Virus record (IMG/VR): IMGVR_UViG_2568526103_000007
Source of the DNA: a virus
Lineage: Duplodnaviria; Heunggongvirae; Uroviricota; Caudoviricetes
Direction: 5' to 3' (one strand)
Length of the DNA stretch: 46,728 nucleotides
The first letter of the stretch is position 1, and each line of letters opens with the position of its first letter. A program made the translations under genes and the position numbers. The notes under the pieces were generated by a model. It was not told the DNA's origin. It searched no databases and saw only the letters and a list, made by a program, of their open reading frames with translations. This document shows positions 2,862 through 8,304 of this stretch, in pieces.

Positions 2862-3022
2862 ACCGCCCCCCGTTTATTATTTATCTCCTCAGCCAGCCGC
2901 TGGGCTTTCAGCGGATTTCGGATAACAGAAAGACCGTGAAATACCCAGCCTCGCTTTGTAACGGAGTAGACGAAAGTGATCGCGCCTACCCGGATATTAT
3001 CGTGAGGATGGGTCATCGCCAT
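2834..3022 (-). CDS. Hypothetical small protein (possibly lambda orf60a-like)
   Basis: 62-aa ORF whose start overlaps the exo stop; position matches the small ORFs that follow exo in lambda. Confidence 0.4.
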
Positions 3023-3693
3023 TGCTCTCCAAATACAAAACCAATTTCAGCCAGTGCTTCGTCCATTTTTTCGATGAACTCCGGCACCATCTCGTCAAAA
3101 CTCGCCATGTACTTTTCATCCCGCTCAACCACGACATAATGCAGGCCTTCACGCTTCATTCGTGGGTCATAGTTGGCAAAGTACCAGGCATCTTTTCGTG
3201 TCACCCACATGCTGTACTGCACCTGGGCCATGTAAGCCGACTTTATGGCCTCGAAACCACCGAGCCGGAACTTCATGAAATCCCGGGAGGTAAACGGGCA
3301 TTTCAGCTCAAGGCCATTGCCGTCACTGCATAAACCATCGGGAGAGCAGGCGGTGCGCATACTTTCGTCGCGATAGATGATCGGGGATTCAGTAACATTC
3401 ACGCCGGAAGTGAATTCAAACAGGGTTCTGGCGTCGTTCTCGTACTGTTTTCCCCACGCCAGCGCCTTAGCATTAACTTCCGGAGCCACACCGGTGCAAA
3501 CCTCAGCCAGCAGGGTGTGGAAGTAGGACATTTTCATGTCAGGCCACTTCTTTCCTGAGCGGGGCTTTGCTATCACGTTGTGAACTTCTGAAGCGGTGAT
3601 GACGCCGAGCCGTAATTTGTGCCATGCATCATCCCCCTGTTCGACAGCTCTCACGTCGATCCCGGTACGCTGCAGGATAATGTCCGGTGTCAT
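3013..3693 (-). CDS. exo: Lambda exonuclease (Red-alpha)
   Basis: 226-aa ORF; sequence [40 protein letters not shown]... matches remembered lambda Exo over its full length; 4-nt overlap with bet. Confidence 0.95.
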
Positions 3694-4475
3694 GCTGCCA
3701 CCTTCTGCTCAGTGGCTTTCTGTTTCAGGAATCCAAGAGCTTTCACTGCTTCGGCCTGTGTCAGTTCTGACGATGCGCGAATGTCGCGGCGAAATATCTG
3801 GGAACAGAGCGGCAATAAGTCGTCATCCCATGTTTTGTCCAGGGCAATCAGCAGAGTGTTAATCTCCTGCATGGTTTCATCGTTAACCGGAGTGATGTCG
3901 CGTTCCGGCTGACGTTCCGCAGTGTATGCAGTATTTTCGACAATGCGCTCGGCTTCATCCTTGTCATAGATACCAGCAAATCCGAAGGCCAGACGGGCAC
4001 ACTGAATCATGGCTTTATGCCGTAACATCCGTTTGGGATGCGACTGCCACGGCCCCGTGATTTCTCTGCCTTCGCGAGTTTTGAATGGTTCGCGGCGGCA
4101 TTCATCCATCCATTCGGTAACGCAGATCGGATGATTGCGGTCTTTGCGGTAAATCCGGCACGTACATGATTCATTGTCCTGCTCAAAGTCCATGCCATCA
4201 AACTGCTGGTTTTCATTGATGATGCGGGACCAGCCATCAACGCCCACCACCGGAACGATGCCGTTCTGCTTATCAGGGAAGGCGTAAATTTCTTTCGTCC
4301 ACGGATTAAGGCCGTACTGGTTGGCGACGATCAGCAATGCGATGAACTGCGCATCGCTGGCATCACCTTTAAATGCCGTCTGACGAAGAGTGGTGATCAG
4401 TTCCTGTGGGTCGACAGAATCCATGCCGACACGTTCAGCCAGCTTCCCAGCCAGCGTTGCGAGTGCTGTACTCAT
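3690..4475 (-). CDS. bet: Bet single-strand annealing protein (Red-beta)
   Basis: 261-aa ORF; [66 protein letters not shown]... matches lambda Bet; same length. Confidence 0.95.
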
Positions 4476-4480
4476 CCGTT

Positions 4481-4777
4481 TTATACCTCTGAATCAATAT
4501 CAACATGGTGGTGAGCAATGGTTTCAACCATGTACCGGATGTGTTCTGCCATGCGCTCCTGAAACTCAACATCGTCATCAAACGCACGGGTAATGGCTTT
4601 TTTGCTGGCCCCGCAGCGTTGCAAATGATCGATGCAGAGTGATTCAAACAGGTGCTGTGGAAGACCTTTTTCCATGTCGTCTGCCAGTTCTGCCTCTTTC
4701 TCTTCACGGGCGATCTGCTGGTAGTGACGCGCCCAGCTTTGAGCCTCAAGACGATCCTGAATGTAATAAGCGTTCAT
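4481..4777 (-). CDS. gam: Gam, RecBCD inhibitor (short 98-aa form)
   Basis: [21 protein letters not shown]...HVDIDSEV matches lambda GamS; immediately upstream of bet in the leftward operon. Confidence 0.9.
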
Positions 4778-4852
4778 GGCTGAACTCCTGAAAATGGCTG
4801 TGAAAATATCGCCTGCGAAATGCCGGGCTGATTAGGTAAACAGGAAAGGGGA

Positions 4853-5143
4853 TTAGTGATTCAGGCCGTTGCCGCGTCCGTCGAGAAAAACTTCCACGAG
4901 CAAATCACGGGTATAAGTGCGCTCGATGCCGCGATGCAGATAAAGCCGTCCGCGTAAATTAGCTGATGCAGTCCAGGTACCATCTTTGTGTTTGACCAGC
5001 ATTCCTGGCATGACCGCACCGCGATTAACGGTCTGCGTTCCGTAATGTTGATGAACCATAAAAACTCCTGCCCGTAAGCTGGGCTGCTGAACATATAGAG
5101 ACTTCTGCGCGTATTCAGGCGGTGGATGGCCGCCGGTTGTCAT
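4853..5143 (-). CDS. Hypothetical protein, first ORF of the leftward (pL-like) operon
   Basis: 96-aa ORF with a GAGG Shine-Dalgarno-like motif about 10 nt upstream; occupies the position where lambda has N/cIII/kil but resembles none of them (not arginine-rich). An alternative 77-aa frame overlaps it. Confidence 0.35.
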
Positions 5144-5329
5144 AACTAAGCCGCCTCGTTGAAGCGACTAAGGTATGAAATGTTGAGTTAATTTCAGCTG
5201 GTCACACCGACGTTCACGCGTCCGTTTCACCCCTCGCACTCCCCGAAGCCTGCTGAAATTCAAACTGCGGATCTAAGCGGTCATCGCAACGGTGAATCAG
5301 GTAGTTGCCGTATCGTTGTGTTGTTGCGA

Positions 5330-5420
5330 TGAACTTATTTAAAACTATAGTTGTTTTATCGTCAACAACAAAAGTTGTTTTATTGGTTGTTTTAGATATA
5401 ACTGGTTGTATTTAGGATGG
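5330..5420. promoter_or_regulatory. Putative left operator/promoter region (oL/pL analog)
   Basis: Cluster of GGTTGT / ACAACC hexamers and short inverted repeats (for example AACAACAaaaGTTGTT) in a non-coding stretch between the repressor gene and the leftward operon; the same hexamer recurs in the cI-cro intergenic region. Confidence 0.45.
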
Positions 5421-5502
5421 ATTTATTTTGTGACTTGAATCGCATAGCGATAACTGAAGCGAGGTTATGGTGGTTTTTTTAACGGTGTGTGTGATGAGGG
5501 GA

Positions 5503-5533
5503 GGGCAAAAGAAAACCCGGCACGGTGACCGGG
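5503..5533 (-). terminator. Intrinsic terminator downstream of the repressor gene
   Basis: On the minus strand: CCCGG-8 nt loop-CCGGG followed by TTTTCTTTTG; lies about 120 nt past the cI-like stop codon. Confidence 0.5.
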
Positions 5534-5654
5534 ATTCTTACGCCGTTAGGTAAAGATATTATTGCGGTGGCTTAATATTACTACCTAGAGCAAAGATAGG
5601 AATTAGTTCTTTACTGAATGAGCACAATGCCCAGTTGATAATTTTTAATTGGTA

Positions 5655-6344
5655 CTACCCATGCTTCCTATATGTCTGCGGCATGCTCCCAATAACCTTA
5701 CCGAAGATGAACACCCGGTTCATCTCGTCTTTCTCGATCGGGTCCCACGGTGAGTAGCTTTTGTTATCAGAGATGACCAGCAGCTTATCCTTCATCATTT
5801 GCAGGCGCTTTACATGGGCTGTGTCGTCGTACAGAAACGCATAGATACCATCACCGTCGAAAGATTTAACTGTGATATCAACGAACAGCAGATCACCTGG
5901 TTCGATCGTTCCTGACATGCTGTCACCACGCACGTTAATGATGCGGATATTTTCCGCCTTCCTACCATCGAACATGTGACGAGCATCGTCAAACGAGTAC
6001 TCAACCGAGCGTAGAACTTCTACAAACTCACGGTTGATGACTCCCGGCCCAGCACTGACTTCTATATCAAGAACGTCAATCTTGAAGTATTTGGAATGGC
6101 TGACAGTTGATTGTATTGGTTGCACTGTACTGTCTGACATATTTCCAACGCCAGAAGATAACCATTCTGCGCGCACACCCAAAGCGTTCGCGATCTCCAC
6201 GATTTTAGTTGTTTGATTAGCTTTCCCTGTTTCGATTTTCTGAATAGCAGCCTGGCTAACCCCGACCAAATCCCCAAGCGCCTTTTGTGTAAGGCCTCGC
6301 GCTAATCTGGCTTCTTTAAGTCTTTCTGAGAGTGTTGTTTTCAT
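5655..6344 (-). CDS. CI-like prophage repressor (HTH_XRE + S24 LexA-like peptidase domain)
   Basis: N-terminal HTH (LTQKALGDLVGVSQAAIQKIETGK) and C-terminal S24 autocleavage domain (GDSMSGTIEPGDLLFVD ... KRL); divergent from the cro-like gene. The six-frame ORF extends to 6410, but the ATG at 6344 (MKTTLSERL) is the likely start. Confidence 0.85.
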   Translation of the reverse strand: MKTTLSERLKEARLARGLTQKALGDLVGVSQAAIQKIETGKANQTTKIVEIANALGVRAEWLSSGVGNMSDSTVQPIQSTVSHSKYFKIDVLDIEVSAGPGVINREFVEVLRSVEYSFDDARHMFDGRKAENIRIINVRGDSMSGTIEPGDLLFVDITVKSFDGDGIYAFLYDDTAHVKRLQMMKDKLLVISDNKSYSPWDPIEKDEMNRVFIFGKVIGSMPQTYRKHG

Positions 6345-6448
6345 AGTCCAAATGTACAACCAAGGTTTTATTCCATCAAACGAAAATGGTTGTTGACTAA
6401 AAACAACCATAGTTTTAATCTTGATTCAAATTAACCACGGAGGTTGTT
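6345..6448. promoter_or_regulatory. Right operator/promoter region (oR, pR, pRM analog)
   Basis: Divergent intergenic region containing the 25-bp palindrome ATGGTTGTTgactaaaAACAACCAT (6386-6410) overlapping a TTGACT -35 hexamer, plus an ACAACCaaGGTT element; GGAGG RBS 6 nt before the cro-like ATG. Confidence 0.6.
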
Positions 6449-6679
6449 ATGAACCCAGCTATCAAAACAGCGATCAATATCGTTGGTTCACAAAAGAAAC
6501 TGGGCGCTGCTTGCGAAGTTTCACAGCAGGCCGTCTATAAGTGGCTTCACAACAAAGCAAAGGTATCCCCTGAACATGTCGGCAGCATTGTTACGGCTAC
6601 TGGTGGAGTAGTGAAGGCATACCAGATTCGCCCGGATCTTCCGAAGTTGTTTCCACACACCGAAAAGAACGCAGCTTAA
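6449..6679 (+). CDS. Cro-like transcriptional regulator (YdaS-like HTH)
   Basis: 76-aa ORF divergent from the repressor gene; HTH-like segment GSQKKLGAACEVSQQAVYKW; position equals cro. Confidence 0.75.
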   Translation: MNPAIKTAINIVGSQKKLGAACEVSQQAVYKWLHNKAKVSPEHVGSIVTATGGVVKAYQIRPDLPKLFPHTEKNAA

Positions 6680-6748
6680 ATTTCCATTTCACGCTCTTTA
6701 ACAATAAGCAATCAACTTAACAGTCAATTCAAACTAAAGGAGTCAATT

Positions 6749-7288
6749 ATGCAACCACTTACATACCAACAGACTAGCGGATTTAGCCCGACTGCGGTGA
6801 TAAATCGTTCTCAAACAAAACAGGTGCCAGGCCACGAAAAAATCCGTGATGCCGTCCGCGCCTGGTCGGCTGTAGATAATCAGGATGTCGTTGCCACACT
6901 CATTGTGAATGAGTATCTGGAGCAGGGCGGCGGCACCATCGATTTCCCTGATGATGTCAGCCGTGCACGCCAGAAGCTGTTCCGCTTCCTCGATAACAAA
7001 TTCGATTCTGAAAAATACCGAAATAACGTGCGTGAACTGACCCCGGCAATTCTGGCGGTACTACCGCTGGAATATCGCGGTTACCTGGTTGAGCAGGATA
7101 GCTTCATGGCTAGGTTGGCTGAAATGGAAAAGGAACTCAGTGAGGCAAAACAGGCTGTCATTCTCAACGCACCACGCCACCAGAAACTGAAGGAAATTAG
7201 TGAAGGTATTGTGTCGATGTTTCGTGTGGACCCAGATCTGGCTGGTCCATTGATGGCGATGGTTACTACCATGCTGGGGGCGATATGA
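6749..7288 (+). CDS. YdaT-like protein (CII functional analog of Rac-type immunity regions)
   Basis: 179-aa ORF; segments EYLEQGGG and LTPAILAVLPLEYR resemble remembered E. coli YdaT (EYLRQGGG, LIPAILAILPRELR); located directly after cro where cII sits. Confidence 0.6.
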   Translation: MQPLTYQQTSGFSPTAVINRSQTKQVPGHEKIRDAVRAWSAVDNQDVVATLIVNEYLEQGGGTIDFPDDVSRARQKLFRFLDNKFDSEKYRNNVRELTPAILAVLPLEYRGYLVEQDSFMARLAEMEKELSEAKQAVILNAPRHQKLKEISEGIVSMFRVDPDLAGPLMAMVTTMLGAI

Positions 7289-7374
7289 CAGGTTCAGAAA
7301 TGGCGAAAGCCGGTCTGCTGGAACAGAACCGACTTTCAGGTGCAAATCGTAACACACTCATTGCGGGAGGAATT

Positions 7375-8304
7375 ATGGCAAACACTGCTGAGATATTCAA
7401 TTTTCCAGTGCCGGATGCGGCACAAAAGGAGCCGCGCGTGGCAGATCTCGATGATGGTTATACGCGCATTGCAAATGAGTTGCTGGAAGCTGTGATGCTG
7501 GCCGGATTAACACAGCACCAGCTTCTGGTCTTTCTGGCTGTCATGCGCAAAACATATGGCTTTAATAAAAAACTGGATTGGGTTAGCAACGAGCAACTTT
7601 CCGAATTAACCGGGATATTGCCGCACAAGTGTTCTGCTGCAAAAAGTGTTCTGGTAAAGCGTGGGATTTTTATTCAGAGCGGGCGGAATACCGGCATTAA
7701 TAATGTGGTCAGTGAATGGTCAACATTACCCGAATCAGGTAAGAAAAATAAAGTTTACCTGAAAGAGGTAAATTTACCTGAATCAGGTAAAAAAAGTTTA
7801 CCCAAATCAGGTAAAGGCGTTTACCCGAATCAGGTAAACACAAAAGACAAACTAACAAAAGACAATATAAAACCTTTTTCGTCCGAGAATTCTGGCGAAT
7901 CCTCTGACCAACCAGAAAACGATCTTCCTGTGGTGAAACCGGATGCTGCAATTCAGAGCGGCAGCAAGTGGGGGACAGCAGAAGACCTGACCGCCGCAGA
8001 GTGGATGTTTGACATGGTGAAGACCATCGCGCCATCAGCCAGAAAACCGAATTTTGCAGGGTGGGCTAACGATATCCGCCTGATGCGTGAACGTGACGGA
8101 CGTAACCACCGCGACATGTGCGTGCTGTTCCGCTGGGCATGCCAGGACAACTTCTGGTCCGGTAACGTGCTAAGTCCGGCCAAACTCCGCGACAAGTGGA
8201 CCCAACTCGAAATCAACCGTAACAAGCAACAGGCAGGCGTGACAGCTAGCAAACCAAAACTCGACCTGACAAACACAGACTGGATTTACGGGGTGGATCT
8301 ATGA
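7375..8304 (+). CDS. O: Replication initiator O (non-lambda N-terminal DNA-binding domain, lambda-identical C-terminal domain)
   Basis: The ORF is open from 7285, but the ATG at 7375 with a GGGAGG RBS gives MANTAEIFNF..., aligning with lambda O MTNTAKILNF; the C-terminal ~120 aa match lambda O; the iterons lie inside the gene. Confidence 0.85.
   Translation: MANTAEIFNFPVPDAAQKEPRVADLDDGYTRIANELLEAVMLAGLTQHQLLVFLAVMRKTYGFNKKLDWVSNEQLSELTGILPHKCSAAKSVLVKRGIFIQSGRNTGINNVVSEWSTLPESGKKNKVYLKEVNLPESGKKSLPKSGKGVYPNQVNTKDKLTKDNIKPFSSENSGESSDQPENDLPVVKPDAAIQSGSKWGTAEDLTAAEWMFDMVKTIAPSARKPNFAGWANDIRLMRERDGRNHRDMCVLFRWACQDNFWSGNVLSPAKLRDKWTQLEINRNKQQAGVTASKPKLDLTNTDWIYGVDL
7726..7837. repeat. Replication origin iterons (five ~18-bp direct repeats TTTACCYRAAWSAGGTAA) followed by an A-rich stretch
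   Basis: Five copies read directly at 7726, 7754, 7773, 7797 and 7820, each internally palindromic (TTACC...GGTAA); embedded in O as in ori-lambda. Confidence 0.8.

Follow-up and report, generated by a model that had tools for sequence, protein, structure and literature searches.

The closest described relatives of the locus considered here are the signals that lie just downstream of PL in lambdoid phages and govern their delayed-early genes: the N/nut system of lambda and the put RNAs, represented by putL and putR of HK022 and by a putL-like RNA of HK639. The put RNAs are cis elements of about 65-75 nt, folded into two bulged stem-loops, that suppress terminators in cis and independently of any factor, via the zinc-binding domain of the RNA polymerase beta' subunit. 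To our knowledge, RNA-only processive antitermination is known essentially from this one family. Put needs no protein factor, and the structure that it forms on the polymerase was not solved until 2022 (PMC9378689). Other leader RNAs that make elongation complexes resistant to termination are the rrn boxA/Nus complex, the EAR element of Bacillus and the Rho-antagonising elements.

The window (the whole stretch of 46,728 nucleotides that was analysed, from the Caudoviricetes record IMGVR_UViG_2568526103_000007 of IMG/VR) has an identical ST131 prophage annotated by PGAP. In it, gam starts at 4777 and an S24/HTH repressor gene stops at 5655, leaving 877 bp, in agreement with the spacing of about 880 bp given by a first-pass annotation made from the sequence alone. 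That annotation recognised neither N, cIII, rexAB nor kil in this interval, and for the first three it was right: PGAP names no N, Nun, cIII or rexAB in the identical ST131 prophage, and tblastn with phi80 N, P22-like gp24, HK022 Nun and lambda N (an approximate sequence) gave nothing better than E = 0.8. There is no arginine-rich early ORF in the window, where the only coding sequence between PL and gam is kil. The non-coding part had been described as operator-rich; operator-like repeats are indeed present, but so are the intrinsic terminator of the cI (repressor) transcript, located upstream of PL (5533-5516, minus strand; CCCGGTCACCGTGCCGGG then TTTTCTTTTG), and a 74-nt remnant of gevA/gevT corresponding to the 3' end of gevA (5540-5613, minus strand). 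Window positions 5400-5613 align to 5264-5479 of locus L001 and 5610-5699 to its 6856-6945, indicating that the 1376-bp gevA-gevT cassette, which occupies the rexAB position in PhiR47_2 and is missing here, has been deleted from this prophage.

A canonical nutL with boxA and boxB, together with an N homolog elsewhere, was what the first-pass annotation had named as speaking against N-independent antitermination, and of these only a boxA turned up, outside the PL leader. In the leader, neither a boxA (allowing 3 mismatches) nor a boxB is present. A consensus rrn-type boxA (GCTCTTTAACAA) is found at 6693-6704 on the plus strand, 14 nt after the cro stop codon and thus at the nutR-equivalent site; it is the sole exact match in the window, where we estimate that chance would give about 0.006 exact 12-mers in 2 x 46.7 kb, and no boxB-like hairpin was found by reading the 45 nt after it. 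This boxA was rejected as a general partner of the leader element described below: it is a feature of a single cro/ydaT module, and 4A7-type relatives lack it. The locus therefore resembles lambda in the position of a candidate signal just downstream of PL and in the boxA after cro, but differs in having no N homolog, no boxA/boxB in the PL leader and no boxB on the cro side.

Transcription of the left operon would begin near 5330, from a PL promoter (5336-5365, minus strand) with a -35 TTGACG at 5365-5360 and a -10 that is either TTAAAT at 5342-5337 or TAAATA at 5341-5336. This promoter mirrors PR (TTGACT, 6393-6398), with 5339-5357 being 95% complementary to 6400-6418, and its -35 and spacing are identical to those of the PL flagged in the H-type locus L117; since a promoter scan of the window did not report PL, it is here inferred from these features. 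Operator repeats (OL) with AACAAC/GTTGTT-type half sites extend over 5339-5415, a feature given no strand, and include the direct repeats 5343-5359 and 5367-5383 as well as stretches that match the OR region (6375-6418) in inverted orientation. In window-type phages, the transcript opens with a leader hairpin (5281-5332, minus strand; AUCGCAAC ... GUUGCGAU), built on a 10-nt perfect inverted repeat (5281-5290 with 5323-5332), which is outside the conserved element and is not kept in H-type leaders.

The conserved element, a candidate processive antiterminator RNA, is the 96-nt leader segment GAUGACCGCUUAGAUCCGCAGUUUGAAUUUCAGCAGGCUUCGGGGAGUGCGAGGGGUGAAACGGACGCGUGAACGUCGGUGUGACCAGCUGAAAUU (5285 to 5190, minus strand), which starts about 45 nt past the inferred PL start site. 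Its 24 distinct sequence variants are all 96 nt long except one of 97 nt, a length kept even though the stem and loop of its hairpin P3 are replaced between element types. Its own covariance model scores 122 bits at 5285 to 5190, a single copy in the window; there is no second (putR-like) copy downstream of PR, and the only other match in the window, of 21 bits inside an inverse autotransporter gene, is probably due to chance. It occurs in 2210 of the 5426 complete E. coli genomes (41%) and is annotated in none of them, and the 28 element-bearing loci (308 kb) carry one copy each. It keeps a fixed place in the PL transcript, inside the first ~50-70 nt, and precedes at least three different downstream contexts: a conserved structured module followed by kil, an HK639-type leader followed by an apparent HNH endonuclease gene, and a tiny ORF. 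In L117, the translation of the first gene downstream of the element reads as this apparent HNH endonuclease and not as an N-like protein. PhiR34_1, 4A7 and Turner are among the viable phages with this arrangement. Infernal cmscan of Rfam 15 over 4400-7400, at E <= 10, returned only chance-level microRNA-type matches, none near the gathering score; the element matches no Rfam family, and it may have been described earlier in the literature (King et al. 2011). One metagenome scan gave mostly chance matches and 2 true copies, and a 15-nt pattern scan of viral contigs also gave mostly chance matches. The element shares with the rrn boxA/Nus, EAR and Rho-antagonising RNAs its place in a leader and its presumed effect on elongation, but differs from them on the two points compared, having no Rfam match at E <= 10 and lying in a leader that has no boxA.

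What ties the element to put is their mutual exchange. In HK639-type PL leaders, the space between the flanks AGCCAGCGNCGAAGTGGAG and TTACCAGCAGCTCTTTGCGAGGGGCTGACGG is filled either by a put RNA, at about 101 loci (98 assigned automatically and 4 labelled 'other' that are divergent put), or by the 96-nt element, at 14 loci (12 plus 2 H3 variants); among the leaders counted, none carries both and none carries neither. Comparison of L117 with HK639 places the element exactly in the putL slot, between identical flanks. The HK639 record annotates this slot as 'putL-like antiterminator RNA' and has an 'M3-like RNA' on the PR side, with no putR annotated. The exchange extends to the other context, since a CobraSix-type put lies directly 5' of the conserved module in six loci (L034, L037, L284, L306, L347 and L354), as the element does in the window. 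In H-type phages the cassette is the sole change from put-bearing relatives, and the element is followed, ahead of kil and the recombination genes, by strong intrinsic terminators (7627-7611 and 6734-6717 in L117, 9086-9103 in L149).

The element nevertheless stands outside the put family. Searching with a covariance model trained on 12 putL/putR sequences, as the first-pass annotation had proposed, gave with filters off no match in either window leader (the best score anywhere was 9 bits, E about 0.9) and no put in the 28 element-bearing loci (308 kb); blastn-short found no similarity to put, for which the consensus used was CGAACGGCNCG ... GUCGG ... GGCGGG.UCA.GGA.GA.CGGCAAU. Given this lack of similarity in sequence or model, the functional analogy is one of position. 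The likenesses are that each is a cis element located within ~100 nt of the start of the PL transcript in N-less lambdoid phages, present once in the left operon with intrinsic terminators after it, and that both occur between the same flanks or directly upstream of the same module. The two irregular stem-loop domains of put would have a counterpart in the element, where stem-loop I and P3 are the supported parts of the fold. The element differs in its length (96 nt against about 65-75 nt), in its conserved single-stranded motifs, among them a long, invariant, purine-rich stretch at element positions 42-58 (GGGGAGUGCGAGGGGUG), and in having a competing long-range helix.

The RNAalifold consensus places stem-loop I at element positions 7-51 (5235-5279, minus strand), with helices 7-9/49-51, 16-18/41-43 and 20-25/34-39, and it is the first structure to form in stepwise folding. 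Helix 16-25/34-43 is paired in 99.5% of cases, and in 8 of the 23 sequences both partners of pairs 20:39 (A-U to C-G) and 21:38 (G-C to A-U) are exchanged. In the second domain, hairpin P3 (61-66 with 75-80; 5206-5225, minus strand) shows pair 61:80 as A-U, G·U or G-C, 65:76 as A-U or G-C and 64:77 as G-C or G·U, and locus L450 adds U63·G78, while the lower stem of this domain (52-57/84-90) is without covariation. Under the two-domain model, pairing holds in 99.4% of cells and 4 pairs (24 cells) are changed on both sides, a covariation unmatched by any shuffle or slid register. It stems, however, from a small number of evolutionary events, in essence three clades (W, H and H3), and for such kindred sequences the shuffle control overstates significance. 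The G·U pairs 23:36, 22:37, 61:80 and 64:77 would be C·A mismatches on the opposite strand, and being strand-specific they mark the PL transcript as the functional strand.

The inverted repeat that first drew attention to this leader is real, although its arms lie at 5190-5201 and 5249-5260 (minus strand; element positions 85-96 with 26-37), about 8 nt away from the "about 5183-5251" given at first pass. The arms are of 12 nt, 11 of them complementary, and 47 nt apart; by itself this is only mildly unusual, an 11-of-12 inverted repeat within 80 nt being found in 8% of dinucleotide shuffles of the 877 bp. The long-range helix pairs in 88.5% of cells (86.7% for the whole long-range model) with zero pairs changed on both sides, and it competes with stem-loop I, becoming the minimum-energy fold in the window type only, once nucleotides 91-96 are made. 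Covariation thus supports the two-domain fold and not the long-range repeat. In energy, the two folds of the window copy are nearly equal (-28.0 versus about -26.8 kcal/mol). Absence of a stable leader structure had also been named as counting against an RNA signal; the folding z-scores against shuffled sequence are non-significant (whole leader +0.18, window copy of the element -0.28), but genuine put RNAs do not stand out either, and the measure therefore has no discriminating power.

The put-like RNA proposed at first pass therefore survives in altered form: a conserved, covarying RNA appears to substitute for putL in homologous leaders, but it is not put, its supported fold is one that competes with the inverted repeat, and its function is deduced from its place. 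Because it sits exactly at the put position of related phages, the element is probably a second, unrelated antiterminator RNA, and on balance we favour the view that it is a put-analogous, N-independent processive antiterminator of a new family. After initiation at PL, the RNA emerging some 45 nt on would fold during synthesis, stem-loop I being followed by the second domain with hairpin P3, and the nascent element would stay on its own RNA polymerase, as the put RNAs of HK022 and HK639 do. With the element bound, this polymerase would resist pausing and read through intrinsic and Rho-dependent terminators across kil-gam-bet-exo, and then through the terminator at 2357-2339 to xis-int, freeing early leftward expression from N protein. 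That terminator (minus strand; AGGGAGCTACAGGCTCCTT then TTTTATTGTT, 8-bp stem), located between the CDSs 2378-2593 and 2058-2279, that is, between the recombination genes and xis/int, is the candidate antitermination target in this prophage.

Between the element and kil lies a conserved structured RNA module (5075-5178, minus strand), common to phi80, HK639, HK225 and at least 120 viral contigs. It comprises an outer helix (CAUA 5177-5174 with UAUG 5144-5141), a hairpin P1 with 7 pairs changed on both sides, an invariant hairpin GGCGG-CCAUCCA-CCGCC at 5134-5118 and a GC hairpin that adjoins the kil Shine-Dalgarno sequence, and its conserved downstream piece falls in different reading frames in different phages.

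The module overlaps the start of the 96-codon ORF (4853-5143, minus strand) with which the first-pass annotation began the leftward operon; it described the ORF as not arginine-rich, and the N-terminus indeed is not. The profile search proposed there assigns it to the Kil family, so the statement that kil is absent was mistaken: residues 20-96 match positions 4-80 of the 83 of PHROG 294 ('Kil protein for bacterial septation inhibition') with E = 1.2e-38, and RefSeq/PGAP already has a 'phage encoded cell division inhibitor protein' at 4853-5059 in the identical ST131 prophage. The NCBIfam FtsZ-inhibitor model PRK11354 aligns from residue 29 with E = 4e-17, and its 61.9 bits, below the curated cutoff of 92, place the product in the family but outside the Rac KilR subfamily; BLASTP to Rac KilR aligns from residue 1 (E = 9e-13, 36% identity), and Pfam has no family for the ORF. 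In Citrobacter, Kluyvera and Enterobacter, the related proteins begin at the internal ATG; upstream of this codon the sequences diverge, and the 28 additional codons are not conserved as protein. By these comparisons, the true coding sequence is kil (4853-5059, minus strand; WP_000233576.1; Shine-Dalgarno AGGAG 5069-5065), a 68-aa KilR-type predicted inhibitor of FtsZ and cell division, of the same family as Rac KilR and the Kil of phi80 and HK639, in all of which it lies upstream of gam and the recombination genes; lambda Kil shares this position only, being unrelated in sequence. The suggestion of an unrecognised regulator or antiterminator of 96 aa, prompted by this being the first ORF after PL, is refuted as far as sequence comparison goes, since the product belongs to the Kil/KilR family, its N-terminal extension is unconserved and overlaps structured RNA, the ATG at 5143 is base-paired within a conserved helix and PGAP calls the 68-aa CDS. 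Kil has no part in antitermination. A leader peptide (MTTGGHPPP...) was also rejected as the main reading of the long ORF, because the conserved segment downstream is in different frames among phages and the AUG is paired in the covarying structure.

Other explanations concern the RNA itself. The left operon may need no processive antitermination, N and tL1 having gone at the same time, in the way that lambda becomes N-independent through nin-type deletions. As part of the 5'-UTR, the element would in that case serve some other purpose, for example in the stability, processing or timing of the transcript, or as a conformational switch acting on the toxic kil. This is unlikely, but in its favour the element of the window type runs straight into the module and kil with no strong terminator between it and kil-gam-bet-exo, the next being that at 2357-2339, so that the need for antitermination is less obvious than in the H type. 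The nearly equal energies of the two folds, with a long-range repeat completed only at full length, would suit a switch, and kil genes of other genera also have long structured leaders, that of Rac kilR including the sRNA KilS. The sequences of the Rac leader and KilS are unrelated to the window leader, as are the leaders of the loci anchored on kil from other genera, which are for this reason uninformative on the element. Against a job of this kind, the element precedes at least three downstream contexts, and so is not a gene-specific regulator, and in the H type it faces several strong terminators and is all that differs from the put-bearing relatives.

Rather improbably, the element could be a nut-like site at which a protein antiterminator is loaded, either one encoded elsewhere in the phage and so far unrecognised or a host factor other than core polymerase; the RNA would then not be self-sufficient. 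Its purine-rich strand resembles a binding platform and the boxA at the nutR position indicates that Nus-factor signals exist in this phage, but no N, Nun or arginine-rich early ORF was found in the searches described, and the W, H and H3 phages differ in their immunity regions and first PL genes, leaving no adjacent conserved protein partner. Moreover, the element exchanges with put, itself free of protein factors (PMC9378689). Still more improbable is that the 96 nt are conserved as DNA (a protein site or a recombination linker) or as a trans-acting, processed small RNA. The element does mark a module junction with freely recombining flanks, and its presence in 41% of E. coli genomes makes it very widespread; but compensatory changes and strand-specific G·U pairs argue for RNA, no terminator or obvious processing signal follows that would free a small RNA, and the place in the early PL transcript is fixed.

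If the element is the processive antiterminator that we favour, a broader proposal can be put forward, which we hold only tentatively: it may found a second family of antiterminator RNAs that act on E. coli RNA polymerase by themselves, free of protein factors, and are unrelated in sequence to put; it resides in prophages of ~40% of sequenced E. coli, with the long-range helix perhaps serving as an off-switch, and the module downstream would be a second new, unannotated phage RNA motif, guarding the delayed-early genes and pairing the ATG at 5143. The swap of put for the element already exists in nature in otherwise identical leaders, which makes the finding directly testable. For annotation, several phage records merge the structured RNA with the 68-aa gene into a 'Kil' or 'hypothetical protein' of 96-128 aa. 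If the reading is true, it would explain how the early left genes are expressed in very common N-less lambdoid prophages, such as that of ST131 and the inducible PhiR34_1 and 4A7, and it would mean that an RNA architecture other than that of put can reprogram RNA polymerase, providing a natural comparison for which surfaces of the polymerase matter.

The window consists of a lambdoid prophage from E. coli ST131; several complete genomes carry prophages identical to it over most of its length, and the isolated phage PhiR34_1 is 99% identical to it in the region of the finding. The minus strand contains int (1-1143), xis and small early-left genes (between int and exo), exo (3013-3693), bet (3690-4475), gam (4481-4777), the ORF discussed below and an S24/HTH repressor gene (5655-6344; a longer start extends it to 6410), and the plus strand a YdaS-like cro (6449-6679), a YdaT-like gene where cII would lie (6749-7288), O, P, an inverse-autotransporter/IS66 insertion, the genes of the nin region and Q. 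This insertion (9252-15722), located between the replication gene P and the nin region, comprises a large intimin/invasin-like gene with Ig repeats and an IS66-family element, in the PR-transcribed direction; PhiR34_1 has other cargo at this place (an SMR transporter, ybcK and others). The gevA-gevT toxin-antitoxin cassette (1376 bp), found at the rexAB position in PhiR47_2 (locus L001:5404-6832), is missing from the window prophage, in which 74 nt left over from the 3' end of gevA (5540-5613) lie between the repressor stop codon and the repressor terminator.

The 877-bp gap between gam and the repressor gene and its 96-codon ORF (4853-5143), described in the first-pass annotation, are real, as is the absence of N, cIII and rexAB. 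No N homolog was found by tblastn with phi80 N, P22-like gp24, HK022 Nun and lambda N, and an arginine-rich motif is absent from every early ORF. The same annotation was wrong in calling the ORF unknown and kil missing: the ORF is kil, the ordinary part of the locus. It matches PHROG 294 ("Kil protein for bacterial septation inhibition", E = 1.2e-38) and the NCBIfam FtsZ-inhibitor model (E = 4e-17), the latter alignment beginning at residue 29. The ATG of this residue is at 5059 and follows AGGAG and five U residues; Kil homologs from Citrobacter, Kluyvera, Enterobacter and others begin exactly at the equivalent ATG, and the DNA upstream of it in those genes is unrelated to that of the window. 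PGAP likewise calls a 68-aa CDS for kil, which aligns with Rac KilR from residue 1 (36% identity). The suggestion that the ORF could encode an unrecognised regulator is therefore refuted at the level of sequence by the family matches and by the homolog starts at the internal ATG.

The first 28 codons of the ORF are a conserved structured RNA, not a protein extension. They belong to a module (5178 to ~5075, minus strand) whose nucleotide sequence is conserved across widely differing phages, with copies in phi80, HK225, HK639, Enterobacter phages and at least 120 IMG/VR contigs (copies at L017:2495-2640, L005:3200-3340 and L006:3959-4100), and which has no Rfam match. The consensus structure of 30 aligned, diverse copies has a CAUA/UAUG helix, whose UAUG includes the AUG at 5143, and an inner hairpin with seven pairs changed on both sides (up to six pair types per pair), followed by an invariant hairpin, GGCGG-CCAUCCA-CCGCC. 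A conserved segment farther downstream falls in different reading frames from one phage to another, so that what is conserved is the RNA rather than a peptide. The module lies directly after an intrinsic terminator (tL1-type) in most phages, and in phi80 directly after N and tL1A; it ends at the Shine-Dalgarno sequence of whichever gene comes next, and one of its hairpins is annotated as a terminator in the HK639 record. Because the phi80 record places a Rho-dependent terminator ~130 nt downstream of it, the module may act on the first delayed-early gene as a barrier or a control element.

A structured leader ahead of kil seems to be the general case. In Citrobacter, Kluyvera, Enterobacter and Silvania prophages (L009-L016; alignment A1), the ~140 nt upstream of kil hold an unrelated leader, with a conserved long hairpin of its own (GTGAGCTTCGCGGTGGTG ... 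CACCACCAGCGAAGTTCAC) and another hairpin, CGCCAGCCTGGCG. Rac kilR of E. coli K-12 is preceded by KilS, an annotated 98-nt small RNA ending in a terminator (L363:2406-2503), which is unrelated in sequence to the window's leader; here too an RNA element guards a kil gene.

A putative PL promoter, with its -35 box (TTGACG) at 5365-5360 and its start near 5330, is suggested by resemblance to a mirror image of PR and the operators, although a promoter scan of the window did not flag it. The ~150 nt from this start to the module are specific to the window's phage group, and BLAST against the collected loci showed that part of this leader (5285 to 5190, minus strand) recurs at ~82% identity in a different context in locus L117. 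Of 5426 complete E. coli genomes, 2210 carry this 96-nt element, as do 16 isolated phages; it is annotated in no record and matches no Rfam family. Its copies represent 24 distinct sequences of three types (W, as in the window, H and H3), all of 96 nt bar one of 97 nt, a length kept constant despite complete replacement of the stem and loop of one hairpin between types.

RNAalifold predicts a stem-loop I (element positions 7-9/49-51, 16-18/41-43 and 20-25/34-39), a hairpin P3 (61-66/75-80) and a weakly supported helix (52-57/84-90). In the two-domain model 99.4% of cells are paired, which no shuffle or slid register comes near, and two-sided changes affect four pairs, 20:39 (A-U to C-G), 21:38 (G-C to A-U), 61:80 (A-U, G·U, G-C) and 65:76 (A-U to G-C), the variation of the element reflecting few independent events. 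The freely variable position 40 is a bulge, and the several G·U pairs indicate that the functional strand is the PL transcript. The inverted repeat noted in the first-pass annotation exists, a few bases from where it had been placed (arms 5190-5201 and 5249-5260, 11 of 12 positions complementary, spacing 47 nt), and is by itself only mildly unusual, since 8% of shuffles hold one as good. Positions 34-37 are contested between stem-loop I and the long-range helix that the repeat would form (26-37/85-96). In this helix no pair is changed on both sides, and the model built on it has only 86.7% of cells paired. In single-sequence folding the minimum-energy structure is two-domain for the H and H3 copies and long-range only for the window type; even in the window copy, stepwise folding keeps stem-loop I as the minimum-energy fold until nucleotide 90, the long-range helix winning only at full length.

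L117 and other H-type loci have a PL leader of the HK639 type, and scanning IMG/VR for its upstream flank returned 120 stretches. The flank is followed by a put RNA in 98 loci (automatic classification), by a divergent version in four and by the element in fourteen, with three chance matches; no locus of this survey had both cassettes and none had neither. Either cassette is followed by one and the same downstream flank, and the HK639 record names the slot "putL-like antiterminator RNA". This shared flank (UGCGAGGGGCUGACGGUAAAC; seen at L005:2136-2195 and in H-type loci) resembles element positions 48-66 (UGCGAGGGGUGAAACGGAC), includes a boxA-like GCUCUUUG and falls within HK639's annotated 126-nt "putL-like" feature. 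Element-bearing loci contain exactly one copy each and lack put, put-bearing phages lack the element, and the put covariance model finds no match in the window. An "M3-like RNA" (two hairpins) is annotated in the HK639 record after the cII-like gene of the PR operon (L361:1711-1770); its sequence is also present in H-type phages (L146, L147, L153), which carry the element instead of putL, so that only the PL cassette has been swapped.

Put RNAs work on RNA polymerase by themselves and suppress terminators of both the intrinsic and the Rho-dependent class (PMC9378689). Downstream of the element in L117 come, in this order, a gene reading as an HNH endonuclease, at least three strong intrinsic terminators, the module and a block 93% identical to the kil-gam-recT region of HK639; L149 follows the same logic. 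The position directly 5' of the module, held by the element in the window, is taken in six loci by a CobraSix-type put. In the window a good intrinsic terminator (2357-2339) stands between the recombination genes and the xis and int genes. RNA-mediated processive antitermination, a function of known kind, is the best explanation of the element, and we regard it as slightly likelier to be right than wrong. The literature searched describes no second class besides put; an earlier mention is possible. The first-pass observation is thus partly confirmed, and its interpretation, which offered RNA-based antitermination or an unrecognised regulator, partly supported.

No element copy was found downstream of PR. 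The element covariance model gives a weak match on the PR-transcribed strand inside the inverse-autotransporter coding region (11549-11640, plus strand; 21 bits, rough E = 7e-4), which is probably due to chance. An exact rrn-type boxA (GCTCTTTAACAA; 6693-6704, plus strand) is found 14 nt downstream of the cro stop codon, in the place equivalent to nutR, with neither a boxB nor an N gene, and perhaps provides Nus-factor protection against Rho. It is linked to the YdaS-like cro/YdaT-like module and absent from 4A7-type relatives, in which the cro-cII gap is only 30 nt, and so stands apart from the element's system as an observation of its own. What makes the locus interesting is a leader RNA of 96 nt that is widespread, unannotated and covarying and that is exchanged with put in nature.
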